The notes under the pieces: generated by a model
The model's database searches: none
Seen by the model: only the letters and a program-made list of their open reading frames with translations
What the model was told of the DNA's origin: nothing
From: a virus
Length of the DNA: 64,000 bases
IMG/VR virus record: IMGVR_UViG_3300001533_001295
Coordinates: 20,773 to 84,772 of that record
Reading direction: 5' to 3' (one strand)
Shown: piece after piece, positions 13,329 to 22,500 of the stretch
How the letters are laid out: every line of letters starts with the position of its first letter
Position numbering within the stretch: position 1 is the stretch's first letter
Position numbers and translations under genes: made by a program

Positions 13329-13724
13329 ATGTATCTACTAAAATTAATAGTAATTTTAGTTTTATCAGTAGATACATCTATCTCTAGTACCGATAACTAC
13401 AGGCGTATGGAAGCGGACAAGCCTGTAGCCGGTCTGTATACTATGCTGGTCAACCGCAGGCACAGCCACAATTTACCTGAGTTAAGATACTGCGCTGACT
13501 TAAGCTCTGAGTGTTATTTTAATAACCAGTTTCAAAGGCGTTACGGCTTAGGTGAGTACACTCGTCAAACCGGTTGCTTCGTGGCAAATGACGGCATGTT
13601 CGCTATAAATGTCTTTAGCAAATTATTTAGCGAGGGACCTGGCTACTATCTAACACTTAACACAAATATAACTAAATTTGGTGCGCACTATGATGGGCAT
13701 TTTTGGACCGTAATATTCGAGTAG
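13329..13724 (+). CDS. secreted CAP/SCP-like protein (degenerate)
   Basis: N-terminal hydrophobic signal; VNRRHSHNLPEL and GAHYDGHFWTVIF resemble the ends of a CAP/SCP domain; conserved His absent. Confidence 0.4.
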   Translation: MYLLKLIVILVLSVDTSISSTDNYRRMEADKPVAGLYTMLVNRRHSHNLPELRYCADLSSECYFNNQFQRRYGLGEYTRQTGCFVANDGMFAINVFSKLFSEGPGYYLTLNTNITKFGAHYDGHFWTVIFE

Positions 13725-13733
13725 GAGCGGGAC

Positions 13734-13931
13734 TTGTCTGACAAACCTTCATTTGAGTTAAATCAAAGAGTCGAGGTAAATCACTACGGTTTGGGAACTA
13801 TATCAGAAGTCACTAACAGATTTCATCCGAAGTACGGTTACGGCTATTTAGTCAATTTGGACAAAAAACAAAAATCTAAACTAAAGTTACTAGCTTGGTT
13901 CTACGAAGACGAGATAAAAGCAGCCGAGTAA
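13734..13931 (+). CDS. small SH3/KOW-like hypothetical protein
   Basis: FELNQRVEV...GTI...YLV...WFYEDEI pattern; TAGGAG RBS. Confidence 0.5.
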   Translation: MSDKPSFELNQRVEVNHYGLGTISEVTNRFHPKYGYGYLVNLDKKQKSKLKLLAWFYEDEIKAAE

Positions 13932-13970
13932 TGTAAGCCTCTGTAGCTCAGCGGATAGAGCAGCGGCCTT

Positions 13971-14576
13971 TAAGTAGTGGGAGCCTTTATGTGGAAGATC
14001 GAGAAGATAGTTAGCAAAGGAGATTACAATTACTACGTTGTGCGCAATCATCCAAGCTGTACCAAGCATGGCTATGTATTGCATCATAGAGTAGTAGTGG
14101 AAAATCACCTTGGCAGGCTTCTTGATCCGACTGAAGTTGTGCATCACCTAAACGGTGATAAGAAAGATAATCGTGTAGATAACTTGCGTGTTATGGATGA
14201 AGCAGATCACGCAAGAGTTCATGGGTATGAACAGGGTGCTCGTTTTGTGGAGCTAAAATGTCCGAGCTGCGGTGTGTTATTTCATCGGCCGCGACGACAA
14301 ACACATTTAGTAAAACCTACAAAATATGCTACTTGCTCATCCTCATGTCGAGGAAAGTTCTCACGTGAAATTCAACTTCATGGACTAACACATAAAGTGG
14401 AGGAGGCTATATCGGAGAATATCGTAAGAGAGTACACGAAGTATTCACACGACAACTCCGAGCAAACCATTTAACTATGGGATGCGTAGAGACTACACGC
14501 CTCCAGCCTGAAATGGCTAAGATATAGTCCAGCCAGCAAGCCTTTATCGGTGGTCATGGAAACATGATGCTGGAAG
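13971..14576 (+). mobile_element. group I intron at tRNA position 34/35
   Basis: 5' exon ends in U, intron ends in G; P3 GGAGGC/GCCTCC, P4 TCGGAG/CTCCGA, R GCGTAGAGACTA, S AAGATATAGTCC. Confidence 0.9.
13989..14474 (+). CDS. intron-encoded HNH homing endonuclease with zinc finger
   Basis: YVLHHRVVVE, VVHHLNGDKKDNRVDNL, HARVH; CPSC...CSSSC; ATG 13989 preceded by GGGAG. Confidence 0.9.
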   Translation: MWKIEKIVSKGDYNYYVVRNHPSCTKHGYVLHHRVVVENHLGRLLDPTEVVHHLNGDKKDNRVDNLRVMDEADHARVHGYEQGARFVELKCPSCGVLFHRPRRQTHLVKPTKYATCSSSCRGKFSREIQLHGLTHKVEEAISENIVREYTKYSHDNSEQTI

Positions 14577-14646
14577 CTAAGCCGTCGGTCGGGGGTTCGA
14601 ATCCCTCCAGAGGTATTTTCAGTAGTATTGCAAAGGAGTGAAAAAT

Positions 14647-14766
14647 ATGAAGAATATTGCATGGTTTATAGTCCAGTGGGTATTAGGTATGCTGCTCAGC
14701 TTACCTATAGCCGCCATAATCTTGTGGCTGCTAGGCGTGCTTAAAATAGAACTAATTATCCACTAA
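14647..14766 (+). CDS. 39-aa membrane peptide (not in ORF track)
   Basis: AAGGAG RBS; MKNIAWFIVQWVLGMLLSLPIAAIILWLLGVLKIELIIH. Confidence 0.55.
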   Translation: MKNIAWFIVQWVLGMLLSLPIAAIILWLLGVLKIELIIH

Positions 14767-14807
14767 CAGTTGGGACCGTAGCTCAAAGGTTAGAGCAGGA
14801 AACTCAT

Positions 14808-15584
14808 CAGTGTTGACTCTTGTGTTCTTGGTTATGGTGTACTTTACTAAGTAACTAAGAACCATCGAAAGAAGTCGGATGTCGAAATCCAAAAGTAAGG
14901 TGAGAATGTTGAATGGGTATAGAGTTATCTACGACCCAACTCATCCAAAAGCTATGACCAGTGAAAATTGGAACGGATATGTGTACGAACATGTAGCTGT
15001 TGCTCAAAATTCACTAGGAAGAAGCTTAGAAAGTGATGAAGTAGTTCATCACTTAGATGGGAACCGCGAGAACAACAGGTCTTCGAATCTGCTTGTTTTG
15101 GAGCGGAGTCAGCATGCAAAACTTCACAGATGGATGGAGACAAATGGTGCCTTTACATTGAAAGATGTAAATGAGAATGGGGTGAATTCAGGGAAACCTA
15201 AATCTATTTCGACATGTAAAGTTTGTGGAAAAACTCTACAAGCAAAGCAAAAAGGTGCTTGCTCACTTAAATGCAAGCGTATCCTTTCCAGGAAGGTTGA
15301 AAGACCGGACAGGCCGACGCTAGAAATCGACATGCAAAATCTATCAATGGTAGCAATTGGTAGTAAGTATGGAGTTTCAGATAATGCGATCAGGAAGTGG
15401 ATAAAATCTTACGAAATAGACACGGCAATCCTGAGCCAAGCTTCTGGTACACCAGAAGAAGGTGCAGAGACTAGCGGAGAGGTAAAGTCCTCTTAATTAC
15501 CGCCTAGAGCGCCCCACACCCAAACGAGTAATGTCGTGGGTGGTGAGATAGTCCAGGGAGAAAATGAAAATTTTCACAAACCAG
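14808..15584 (+). mobile_element. group I intron at tRNA position 36/37
   Basis: P AATTCAGGGAAACC, Q AATCCTGAGCCAAG, R GGTGCAGAGACTA, S GAGATAGTCC, P3 TGGGGTG/CGCCCCA, terminal G. Confidence 0.92.
14879..15496 (+). CDS. intron-encoded HNH homing endonuclease with zinc finger and C-terminal HTH
   Basis: YVYEHVAVA, VVHHLDGNRENNRSSNL, HAKLH; CKVC...CSLKC; IGSKYGVSDNAIRKW HTH. Confidence 0.9.
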   Translation: MSKSKSKVRMLNGYRVIYDPTHPKAMTSENWNGYVYEHVAVAQNSLGRSLESDEVVHHLDGNRENNRSSNLLVLERSQHAKLHRWMETNGAFTLKDVNENGVNSGKPKSISTCKVCGKTLQAKQKGACSLKCKRILSRKVERPDRPTLEIDMQNLSMVAIGSKYGVSDNAIRKWIKSYEIDTAILSQASGTPEEGAETSGEVKSS

Positions 15585-15665
15585 AATTTCTTGGTTGCGG
15601 GTTCGAATCCTGCCGGTCCTATTTTAGTCATTATCTTAGTTTTAAACTTTAACTAGGTTTATACC

Positions 15666-16304
15666 ATGTTTAGTCTATTAGCGGTCATGTGTGTGAATGA
15701 CTTAATCTTTAGTAAAATTGAGCCAGTTACTAATAGATTTGGTTCAGGTACTTTTTATTCGGACGTAATGAATTATGCTTCAAATCCATACGTCCGGGAT
15801 ATAAGGTCTACCAACGCGCACGAGACAACGCATGGTATAAACTCGTCACTAAGAAACAGATTCAGGAGCGTTTATCCTCATAAGATAAACGCTTTTTTTG
15901 TTGGTAGAGGGGAGTACGTAGTACTCGCCGAACCTAACATCAGGTTGAGAGATGTAGCGCAATTTGTTCCGGCGGCTCTAAGAGGTCGCCGTTTTAATTT
16001 GTACTTCGTGCAACAAGTTAGGCACTGGGACGATACGCCTTTATATGTGTTAGACGAGTTCGTTTGTTACATAAACGGAGGTAAGGTATGCGTAGACGAT
16101 CTGTTAAATAATCGGTACAGACAAGAGAACACAGACGGCGTGTCTGGTTGTTTAGAGTTTGCCATATACTCTATGGCTTTGGTGAAGTGTATAGAGATTA
16201 GAGATCCAGGTTACTTTGAGCGAGAGAAAAATTTCCTACCATTTATTAACCACTTAATATTTGAGGCAGGTCTTACGTTTTATAAAGGAAGTCAGTTTAG
16301 GTAG
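15666..16304 (+). CDS. HExxH metallopeptidase-like protein (possibly truncated by an in-frame TAG)
   Basis: AHETTH motif, downstream YVLDE; the frame stays open 47 codons past the TAG to 16448. Confidence 0.6.
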   Translation: MFSLLAVMCVNDLIFSKIEPVTNRFGSGTFYSDVMNYASNPYVRDIRSTNAHETTHGINSSLRNRFRSVYPHKINAFFVGRGEYVVLAEPNIRLRDVAQFVPAALRGRRFNLYFVQQVRHWDDTPLYVLDEFVCYINGGKVCVDDLLNNRYRQENTDGVSGCLEFAIYSMALVKCIEIRDPGYFEREKNFLPFINHLIFEAGLTFYKGSQFR

Positions 16305-19595: not shown

Positions 19596-22500
19596 ATGTC
19601 CGACTTCTACTGGCTTAACAATGACTCTAGGCTTTTTCTATCCCGAGGATATTTAGCCGAGGGTCAAGAAGCTGAGGATAGGCTTCTAGATATTAGTAAG
19701 AACGCTGAGAAGACGTTAGGCCCTAACTTCGCCGGCTTTGCTGATAAGTTCTATGGTTATTTAGCTAGAGGCTTCTACTCCCTAGCTACGCCGGTCTGGA
19801 CTAATTACGGAAACGATCGCGGACTTCCTGTGTCCTGCGTTGTTGGTGATACATGGATAAATACAAAATATAATGGAGGCAAACTAGCTAAAGATATAGA
19901 AATAGGAGACGAGGTTTTAACTCATAAAGGGCAATATAAAAAAGTAACAGATGTAATTTTAACAAAAAATCAAAAAGATATTTATAAAATTAAAATATCT
20001 AGCAGAATGACACCACTATACATCACTGGAAACCATTTGGTTTTAACAAATTTAGGATGGGTTAGATGTGATGAGTTAAATTCAGATTACCATCTTGTCG
20101 CTATTAACGGAGATATAGAATATATTGAGCAAGATTACGAAATAGATCTAAAACCATTTTGTAATTTTGAATCAACTATAATTGATGGTAAAATATGTAA
20201 ATTAATTACAGACAATATAAAGTATAAAAAAAGATCAAAGAACGGAGTATATGTTGATTACTACGCTACACCCAAAGAAAAAATACAAGTAGATAACGAC
20301 CTAGCTTGGGCTTTGGGGTTGTGGTTTGCCGAGGGATCCCTTAGCACTAGAGGTGGCTCACCGTGCGGAATTCGTATAACGTATAATACTAAAGACGAAA
20401 AAGAATTGGGGGATAAATGGTTCCATATAATGTCTGAAAAATTCGGCTTAAAAGGTAACATCTATGACAGTGTGTGTAATAGAAATGGAAAATCTACAAG
20501 CTGGAGTAACGCAAATATTAACTCTAATATTATAGGTAATTTTTTCGAATCTTTTGGTAAAGGATGTAAAGAAAAAACAATACCTCAATGGATTATTGAT
20601 CTACCCAAAGAAAAACTTGATCTTTTCTTAAAAGGCTTGTTGGATGGGGATGGTACAAAAACTAAAAGCAATTCCAACAGAATAACCGTAGCAAATCCTA
20701 AAATGCTGCTTCAAATATACCAGATAGGACTAAAACTTGGTTTGCAGATGTCGCTGCAAATGCAAGAAAAAGCAGGAAAATTAGCAACAACTACACATAC
20801 TTATACATGTATCTTTATATCTTATGAAACAGATAATAGAAGATCTAGCAGATTTGCTATTAAATTTCATGATGGTTTATATTACTCGAAAATTAGAGAA
20901 ATATTAAAAACAGATAAATCAGAAGATGTATATGATTTTACTGTTGAAGATGATCATTCTTTTAGCGCTGCTGGTGTCCTACTTCATAATTGCTTCAACT
21001 CACATTTGTCGGACAAAATGCAGTCTATACTATATAAGACTGCTGAAGTCGGCATGATGAGTAAGTACGGCGGCGGCACATCTGGTTACTTCGGCGACAT
21101 ACGTCCTAGAGGCGCGCCTATAAGCGTAGGCGGCACTTCTAGCGGAGCCGTACACTTTATGGAGTTGTTCGATAAAGTGGCAGATACGGTGAACCAGGGC
21201 AACTCTAGGCGCGGATCTTTCGCTGCCTACTTACCTGTAAGCCATCCCGACATACTAGAGTTTTTGCGCATAAGATCTGACGGCCATCCTATTCAGAACA
21301 TGTCGATAGGTGTAACTATCACCGACGACTGGATGAGAGATATGATTGCCGGAGACAAAGACAAGCGTAAGGTATGGGCTAAGATAATTGAGAAGAGATT
21401 TGAGAGCGGTTATCCTTATGTCGCTTTTATAGACAACATTAATAAAAACAATCCTAAAGTTTATAAAGATAAAAATTTAAGCGTAAAATCACAAAATCTT
21501 TGCGTTGCTGGAGACCAGCGGGTTGTAACTAGCCGAGGTATGCTTACAGCTAAAGAGCTGTATGAGATCGGAGGTAACTTAACACTGTTTGACAACGATA
21601 AGATTGTTAATTCAGGGCCTATGTCTCTTGTAGAACGTATGGCCGATGTCTATGAAATTGAGCTAGATAACGGCCTCACACATAAAGTTACTAGCTACCA
21701 TAAAGTTAAAGTCAGGACGTCTGGCACTTTGGATACGGTAGTTAAGACGGCCGACGTAGCTTGCTCAGATTTAAACGTAGGCGATTTAGTAGCTGTTCAG
21801 ACTAATAAAGGTCTGTTTGGTGACGTCAATAAAGAAGATGAAGCTTTTCTACTAGGCTTGCACCAATCAGAAACTGAAGATAATACGTTAACTGAAGTCC
21901 CAGACTGGATCTGGGAGTCAAACGAAGATACGCAGAGAGCATATATAAGAGGCCTACTACTTCCAAATATTGGAAGAGGGCTGCACCACCGGTCAAAGGA
22001 CTTCCTAAAAGACTTACAACTCGTACTAGTGAATTTGGGAATTAACTGTGCTTTAAAATTAAGAGAAGCTGAAGGGGTTTATACACTTTATAGTTTAGAC
22101 GATGATTTAGATAACGCCTTCCATAAAATTAAGTCTATTAATTACGTAGGCCAAGAAGACGTCTACTGCGTGACTGTAGACTCAGCAGAGCACCATTGGG
22201 TCTGCAACGGAGTCGTAACACATAACTGCGCGGAAATATCGCTCCATTCAGATGAAAAATACTCTTTTGTATGCGTGTTATCTTCTATAAACTTAGAACA
22301 CTGGGATGCTATAAAGTCTACAGACGCGGTCGAGACGCTAATATATTTCCTCGACACGGTAAACGAGGAGTTCGTCCGTAAGTCTAAGGATCTTCCTTTT
22401 ATGGAACATCCTTATAATTTCGCTAAAGACCATAGGGCTCTAGGTCTTGGGGTTTTAGGCTGGCACTCGTATCTTCAGTCTAAGATGATACCTTTCGATA

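Follow-up and report, generated by a model that had tools for sequence, protein, structure and literature searches.

The window analysed here is a stretch of 64,000 nucleotides (nt), positions 20,773 to 84,772 of the IMG/VR virus record IMGVR_UViG_3300001533_001295, and the element under study is one of its transfer RNA genes, a tRNA with the anticodon CAU (tRNA(CAU)), which is split in the anticodon loop by a group I intron. An open reading frame (ORF) of 205 amino acids (aa), encoding a candidate HNH homing endonuclease, is threaded through the conserved core of this intron. The window is part of an 84.8-kb viral contig, 42% complete according to CheckV, whose genes include an RNA polymerase beta-like gene and a ribonucleotide reductase gene; two of the runs containing most of the sequence were freshwater or aquatic metagenomes.

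When the segments 14772-14807 and 15585-15621 were joined by script, ARAGORN recognised the product as a cloverleaf tRNA(cat) with the anticodon loop CUCAUAA. The Rfam group I model RF00028 matched 15122-15576 with 68.8 bits (gathering score 50, E 2.4e-15), covering model positions 1-253 in full, and its alignment contained an insert of about 210 nt in the loop L5 as well as a 34-nt hairpin between P7 and the 3' strand of P3 (P3'). An earlier note on this DNA had described a 777-nt group I intron directly after the CAU anticodon, and both the match and the cloverleaf agreed with it, including its boundaries. The features of the locus, with the evidence for each, are given in Table 1.

Table 1. 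Features of the split tRNA(CAU) gene, its intron and the ORF threaded through it (window coordinates)
Feature	Position	Strand	Evidence
tRNA(CAU) 5' exon: acceptor, D arm, 5' anticodon stem, loop CUCAU to end of anticodon	14772-14807	+	ARAGORN, covariation
777-nt group I intron, beginning next to U14807 and ending with omega-G15584	14808-15584	+	RF00028; boundaries coincide with the joint of the intronless contig of run X4
P1 5' strand (exon CAU and first intron base C), partner GGUG 15146-15149	14805-14808	+	covariation
L1 insert: structured leader of 70 nt (hairpin at about 14826-14873), then the stretch of the ORF that encodes HNH	14809-15145	+	position between the P1 strands
ORF, 205 aa, HNH homing-endonuclease candidate, stop included	14879-15496	+	ORF list, homologues
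HNH_3 domain, aa 36-80, with invariant H57, H58, N66, N70, H79	14984-15118	+	Pfam PF13392, E 9.5e-11
Internal guide sequence GGUG (P1 3' strand), in the codons of a conserved G-A motif	15146-15149	+	
P2 hairpin, 8 bp, GAAA cap	15152-15171	+	all 8 pairs change on both sides
P3 5' strand, partner 15510-15516	15178-15184	+	97.6% paired; 4 of 7 pairs change on both sides
P4 5' strand (15188-15193), three A's, P5 5' strand (15197-15198)	15188-15198	+	P4 100% paired, 4 of 6 covary; P5 97.2% paired
L5 insert: Cys4 zinc finger (about 15215-15274), helix-turn-helix (about 15335-15415)	15199-15423	+	insert in the Rfam alignment, conserved Cys
P5 3' strand and P4 3' strand	15424-15434	+	covariation
P6 (2 bp) and P6a (7 bp, loop UACA)	15436-15462	+	P6a 99.2% paired, 7 of 7 pairs change on both sides
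P7 5' strand, partner 15549-15553, pseudoknot with P3	15469-15473	+	100% paired; 4 of 5 pairs invariant, 1 covaries
P7.1-like hairpin: outer GCGG/CCGC, inner AGAGG/CCUCU, internal loop UAAUUA with the ORF stop	15474-15503	+	
P3 3' strand	15510-15516	+	covariation
P8 hairpin	15519-15540	+	outer pairs covary; inner part poorly aligned; 69.6% paired overall
P7 3' strand	15549-15553	+	covariation
P9.0 (15555-15557 with 15581-15583), P9 hairpin (15560-15575, GAAA loop), omega-G15584	15555-15584	+	
tRNA(CAU) 3' exon: A37, A38, 3' anticodon stem, variable loop, T arm, acceptor 3' strand, discriminator A	15585-15621	+	ARAGORN, covariation

Scanning viral contigs with a profile yielded 285 confirmed stretches. 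Eighty of them were retained, and in the closest of these the ORF lay within a split tRNA according to ARAGORN, run so as to permit long introns. Eighteen distinct precursors, namely the window, 13 viral contigs and four metagenome-assembled genomes (MAGs), were aligned with MAFFT, and the pairs of a model drawn from the window's own helices were counted over this alignment. The 87-pair structure was formed in 91.1% of the cells against 72.4% in shuffles, compensatory changes on both sides were present in 62 of the 87 pairs, and none of 500 shuffles reached any of the five structure measures. As a control, the 3' partner was slid by 1-3 columns, which left only 33-46% pairing. The acceptor stem of the tRNA was paired in 100% of the cells and the anticodon stem in 94.4%, both with covariation; towards the 3' end of the intron, P9.0 was 83.3% paired (3 of 3 pairs changing on both sides) and P9 91.9%, while the helices of the P7.1-like hairpin reached 76-94%, with compensatory changes. 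In all 18 precursors the first exon ended in CTCAT and the second one started with AA directly after a G.

At the 5' splice site, the P1 pairs C-G, A-U and U.G were invariant in 18 of 18 precursors, the pair U14807.G15147 being at the splice site itself, and the fourth pair, formed by the first intron base with the preceding G, covaried (CG in 15 precursors and AU, UA and UG in one each). Another candidate for the guide sequence, GGUGAG at 14899-14904, which pairs with CUCAU through a U.G and overlaps a possible ribosome-binding site, was rejected because it consists of V-R codons that were not conserved in the relatives, GGUG together with P2 being invariant. An extension of P1 that closes the 335-nt L1 looked good by eye in the relatives L031, L025 and L034 and in the window (14812-14819 with 15136-15143); cognate duplex energies did not differ from non-cognate ones (means of -11.35 and -10.67, sd 3.54), with the automatic guide finder off in 4 of 18 rows. 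The structured leader in L1 had a fold energy of -24.1 kcal/mol. In five relatives (L012, L013, L017, L020 and L023) the leader could form a hairpin in which the splice site pairs with a downstream GGUUCAAAUG-like motif; this would place a U-A pair at the splice site and is possibly a competing or relic helix. Besides the invariant guide GGUG, the window (14836-14839) and L016 contained a second AUGGUG in the L1 leader, about 30 nt past the splice site, which may be a relic of an original short P1 hairpin or a competing partner of the splice site.

The reading frame starts in the P1 loop, and its HNH domain lies inside this 335-nt loop, downstream of the 5' splice site and upstream of the guide sequence. 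The frame then passes through the guide sequence and P2 and along the P3, P4 and P5 5' strands (15146-15198), runs through the L5 insert, crosses P5', P4', P6 and P7, and ends with the TAA 15494-15496, which is part of the internal loop in the P7.1-like hairpin. The earlier note had placed the HNH domain before P3 and had the frame reading P3/P4, P6 and P7 before ending in a P7.1-like stem; all of these elements were found at the positions it gave, and the location of the domain could be sharpened to the inside of the P1 loop, upstream of the GGUG at 15146-15149. About 130 of the 615 coding bases overlap the conserved core.

The two kinds of coding sequence differed in their codon pattern. Pairwise identity at codon positions 1, 2 and 3 was 0.60, 0.73 and 0.38 in the HNH part and 0.53, 0.61 and 0.36 in the L5 part, whereas it was 0.60, 0.67 and 0.64 in the overlap from the guide sequence to P5 and 0.70, 0.72 and 0.71 in the overlap from P5' to P7.1. 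Third codon positions were free in both domains and fixed in the core overlaps. The 5' bases of P3-P5 encode a linker, N-G-V-N-S-G-K, and the corresponding motif N-x-x-N/K-S-G-K, which is P3/P4 written as protein, was present in intron-borne ORFs and in none of the 12 aligned full-length free-standing relatives. Because third positions were fixed and the linker motif was confined to intron-borne ORFs, coding in the core overlaps is, on the strength of these alignments, ruled by the RNA.

The encoded protein matched PF13392 (HNH_3) with 41.6 bits, against a cut-off of 24.8, and the family phrog_15471, 'HNH endonuclease', over aa 12-181 (E 9.3e-36). H57, H58, N66, N70 and H79, which we take to be the catalytic His and Asn residues, were invariant in an alignment of 28 sequences (A1), as were C113, C116 and C128, with C132 nearly so. 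Neither a match better than E 0.3 among solved structures nor any match in NCBIfam was found for the protein. The zinc finger and helix-turn-helix that the earlier note had located in an expanded P5 were borne out as far as the L5 insert and the four conserved Cys are concerned; the labels themselves are based on these Cys and on Pfam matches under the cut-offs, with no significant family match. Homologues of the ORF numbered 331 at E<=1e-5 among 372 candidates, many of them full length with 200-206 aa, the closest one being 76% identical. The comparison of L012 with L013 over 196 codons (dN 0.033, dS 0.374, dN/dS about 0.09) indicated purifying selection on the ORF.

Over 13700-15900, the window was compared with contigs from four public runs (X1-X4). 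Runs X1 and X2, possibly the samples from which the record was derived, carried the full locus. In run X4, from lake water of another study, a 297-nt contig (depth 19) had 14635-14807 (173 nt, one mismatch) joined directly to 15585-15688 (104 nt, no mismatch), the skipped stretch being exactly 14808-15584. This contig is an intronless allele and fits homing. The same run also contained a piece of the window's first intron, that of the neighbouring tRNA-Arg gene (14038-14314, with one base missing at 14112), so that the X4 phage seems to have the neighbouring intron and to be without the CAU intron. A 265-nt contig of run X3 (depth 3.2) consisted of 14643-14808 (one mismatch), two bases and 15144-15202; in this form the two bases replace 14809-15143, leaving a short P1 hairpin without the HNH part, and no contig of that run covered 15203-15462, where most of the L5 insert lies. 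The three states of the locus (full intron, HNH-less and empty) seem to match the life cycle of a homing element. The intron is or recently was mobile: the joint at exactly 14807/15585 in X4 and the purifying selection on the ORF both agree with the mobile, endonuclease-bearing intron that the earlier note had proposed.

Two further joints in the run contigs, 13961-15593 and 13969-14577, had short sides (21-26 nt) with foreign letters between them and were rejected, being read as tRNAs of other organisms. A synteny look for empty sites in 17 relatives of the downstream gene (30-43% identical) found no tRNA nearby. At 15171-15204 and 15198-15424, P4-P5 and P5'-P4' were matched, with only 19 bases between them, by X1 and X2 contigs that had a depth of about 130 and belonged to other organisms; compact core relatives are therefore common in those samples.

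The same insertion site recurred among tRNAs with quite different stems. In species-representative genomes, full-length relatives were found in four MAGs only, all of them split directly after CTCAT and labelled Saccharibacteria, Nomurabacteria, Bacteroidales and Aquaspirillum, the last one a 4-kb contig with a tRNA array. Phages as vectors of tRNA introns, another proposal of the earlier note, would fit this distribution over viral contigs, three candidate-phyla or Bacteroidales MAGs and one short contig labelled Aquaspirillum. One relative (L095, 1152-2462) contained tandem tRNA(CAU) genes with near-identical exons, both split at one site, one by an HNH-threaded intron and the other by an ORF-less intron of 249 nt in which L1 is a short hairpin and P5 is capped by GAAA.

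Weaker relatives of the protein (34-48% identical) were free-standing genes within tRNA gene arrays, often adjoining a tRNA(CAU) gene, and an Rfam scan found a group I core over the ORF in none of 20. In L048 (866-1776), a compact group I intron without an ORF (RF00028, 55.2 bits) split a tRNA(CAU), and a free-standing HNH relative came directly after this gene, an arrangement that may be intermediate between the free-standing and the intron-borne states. The best matches in cultured phages had less than 60% identity in 35 of 35 records. Free-standing copies in the jumbo phages phiKZ (gp296, PHIKZ296), BRkr and Psa21 belong to the same family, with 42-45% identity across 86-95% of the ORF and an unchanged order of HNH, zinc finger and helix-turn-helix, and they adjoin tRNA genes. 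Unlike the window ORF, however, those of phiKZ and BRkr stand downstream of an intact tRNA-Asn and an intact tRNA-Thr, respectively, no group I core was found at either locus, and the core-encoded linker motif is missing in the free-standing relatives from viral contigs. In a tree of 36 HNH proteins, 14 of the 15 intron-borne ones fell into one weakly supported group, together with three free-standing ones.

With the exons, their boundaries, the covarying ribozyme structure, the dual-coding signature, the purifying selection on the ORF and the intronless allele all directly supported, it is very probable that a phage tRNA(CAU) is here split at 36/37 by a group I intron with a threaded HNH homing-endonuclease gene. 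The intron is predicted to be self-splicing, of the bacterial tRNA-intron type and Azoarcus-like or IC3-like. We infer its catalysis, the activity and target of the nuclease and the timing of translation. The precursor would fold so that CAU/C pairs with the GGUG about 340 nt downstream; guanosine would attack after U14807, G15584 would then take its place, and the exons would be ligated to a tRNA with the loop CUCAUAA. A ribosome on the ORF would have to melt most of the core, and translation and splicing would therefore exclude each other on one molecule, the template for the enzyme probably being the excised intron or a minority of the transcripts. This enzyme would nick or cut intronless tRNA(CAU) alleles of related co-infecting phages, and recombinational repair would copy the intron into the cut allele.

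Several observations weigh against this interpretation. Membership in IC3 is tentative, and the P7.1-like hairpin is not known from the Azoarcus intron; this additional hairpin separating P7 from P3', like the L1 and L5 inserts, departs from the compact form. P2 was paired in 66% of the cells and the inner part of P8 in 70%, values that are at least partly due to the misalignment by MAFFT of stems of unequal length, P2 covarying clearly by eye. The evidence from X3 and X4 consists of assembled contigs of runs whose kind was guessed as 'DNA?', the X3 form being one contig of low depth, and no run was on record as RNA among those listed; splicing and translation are predicted. On the tree, the intron-borne or free-standing label needs five changes with few supported branches, and the ancestral state is left undecided by it. 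The G-A-P motif over the guide sequence was also present in the free-standing relatives L029, L037 and L050, and it is therefore not purely dictated by the RNA.

As to the amino acid carried, we infer that tRNA(CAU) is probably the AUA-reading tRNA-Ile2. The best E. coli matches of the 5' exon, which came from 5,424 of 5,426 genomes, were genes annotated as tRNA-Ile and sharing CAT in 12 of the 12 matches listed, although with E-values of only 1-4, which count against this assignment. In the 24 large ORFs of the window, ATA made up 45% of the Ile codons, AGA 36% of the Arg codons and TTA 39% of the Leu codons; the other tRNAs on the contig read TTA, AGA and ACA, and with ATA as the most frequent codon for Ile the gene fits a set supplying A-ending codons. 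That it is instead an elongator tRNA-Met, which would leave the intron biology the same, is unlikely but deserves weight: pair 4-69 is A-U in the window versus C-G in 11 of the 17 scored relatives, and the name 'Met' is given by ARAGORN to any CAU tRNA. Initiator tRNAs have three G-C pairs in the anticodon stem; the stem of the window gene is without three consecutive G-C pairs and, by this rule, is no initiator tRNA. The data thus lean towards the Ile2-like identity of the earlier note and leave some room for Met.

A second alternative concerns the ORF. The intron could splice while the endonuclease gene is an immobile relic, kept open through RNA constraint and spread only vertically, as the share of coding bases lying in the conserved core, the short-form relatives whose ORF ends directly after the helix-turn-helix and the ORF-less and HNH-less versions, as in a degeneration cycle, might suggest. 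This is improbable, since both domains outside the core have normal codon periodicity and are under purifying selection, the four Cys and the presumed catalytic His and Asn show no or almost no variation, a natural empty site with near-identical flanks exists, and tRNAs whose stems differ widely are interrupted at the same point. That the protein is mainly a maturase or a regulator of its own intron or of the tRNA supply, binding RNA by its zinc finger and helix-turn-helix, has very little probability: some intron-encoded proteins do double as maturases, and ORF and core are physically interwoven here, but free-standing three-module relatives adjoin uninterrupted tRNA genes with no core detected, in phiKZ and BRkr as among the weaker relatives, ORF-less copies of the intron persist, and the HNH catalytic residues are conserved.

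The surroundings of the gene were also inspected. The contig has five tRNA genes, two of them split; besides tRNA(CAU) they are Asn(GUU), Leu(UAA), Thr(UGU) and the adjoining split Arg(UCU). The latter (13937-14615) has its loop divided as CUU/CUAA by an insert of 606 nt according to ARAGORN, which encodes a 165-aa HNH_3 ORF (13977-14474) whose 3' end overlaps a group I core; this core scored 30.4 bits for RF00028, under the gathering score. A small ORF of 42 aa, strongly hydrophobic, lies between both split genes (14638-14766). The two introns occupy different anticodon-loop positions, and their ORFs are 33% identical. Two split genes out of five may reflect the invasion hotspot suggested in the earlier note.

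Two crAss-like matches, L010 (cr55_1) and L011 (cr4_1), were rejected as the same element: around neither of them did ARAGORN detect a split tRNA, and the adjoining gene was on the opposite strand. Their cores (L010, 2396-2640, 58.7 bits; L011, 2404-2655, 74.9 bits) were of the compact group I kind and were 75-81% identical to the P5'-P7 stretch of the window over about 100 nt. The opposite-strand neighbour was annotated as an HNH endonuclease in cr55_1 and as a hypothetical protein in cr4_1, and RAGATH-9 and RAGATH-22 RNAs were located upstream of the crAss-like cores.

Four classical settings of bacterial tRNA introns have been described, all IC3 and including Ile2.5Ug, and tRNA introns above about 400 bp may hold genes (Williams 2020). 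The loop CUCAU/AA fits the Ile2.5Ug class, so that 36/37 of tRNA-Ile(CAU) is, as the earlier note had stated, the Azoarcus-class site (Williams 2020). With the Azoarcus intron the window intron shares the type of host gene, the insertion after the fifth base of the anticodon loop and the U-1/omega-G rule (Williams 2020). The Azoarcus pre-tRNA-Ile intron has 205 nt and no ORF, whereas the window intron has 777 nt, coding inserts in L1 and L5 and a hairpin between P7 and P3', and belongs to a phage. Presumably the Azoarcus intron also shares the GAAA-capped P2 and P9 and the three-base exon part of P1.

I-HmuI (SPO1), I-BasI (Bastille) and I-PfoP3I (Pf-WMP3) are likewise HNH endonucleases, nicking ones, of phage group I introns, and HNH-bearing introns of this group are well known from protein genes of phages; in contrast to the tRNA gene studied here, those introns split DNA polymerase genes, and the intron of I-PfoP3I is of the IA2 subgroup. 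Their ORFs reportedly sit in a single loop, whereas that of the window occupies two loops together with most of the core. Overlap of an endonuclease ORF with the core is a recognised arrangement, in which expression is said to be kept under tight control so that folding is left undisturbed (Hausner, Hafez and Edgell 2014). Such ORFs are described there as ones that 'extend and overlap' the core, whereas the window frame crosses the guide sequence, P2, both strands of P3-P5, P6 and P7, and the core encodes an interdomain linker.

SegB of T4 is also a homing endonuclease that favours the inheritance of a phage tRNA region in co-infection, although it is a GIY-YIG enzyme, free-standing in the T4 tRNA cluster and with no intron. 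I-Ssp6803I of Synechocystis is said to be a PD-(D/E)xK enzyme, not an HNH one. It is encoded by the tRNA-fMet intron, also a group I intron in an anticodon loop that encodes an anticodon-region endonuclease (Bonocora and Shub 2001); the site, however, is a different one (fMet.2Ug, after the second loop base; Williams 2020), and the host is a bacterium. Searches of the literature brought up neither a phage tRNA gene with a group I intron that bears an HNH gene nor the L1/L5 layout with a core linker; long Ile2.5Ug introns may be among those in Table 1 or the supplements of Williams (2020).

We tentatively propose, at somewhat less than even confidence, that these elements form an undescribed, widespread family of phage tRNA(CAU) introns, in which the endonuclease gene is split over two peripheral loops, the core serves as linker and C-terminal tail, splicing and endonuclease synthesis are mutually exclusive, and the intron homes between co-infecting jumbo phages, with possible shuttling into candidate-phyla bacteria. 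Three features of the element are unusual: the phage tRNA as host gene; an endonuclease frame that crosses nearly the whole core, so that the bases of the overlap serve RNA folding and protein coding at once, as the third-codon-position data show; and the apparent presence of all three states of one locus in natural samples. With hundreds of family members, it is a small natural system in which to ask what separates translation from ribozyme folding on a single RNA. It also bears on the entry of endonuclease genes into introns, since close free-standing relatives, such as gp296 of phiKZ, stand beside tRNA genes, and it raises the question of whether phage tRNA clusters are arenas of phage competition.

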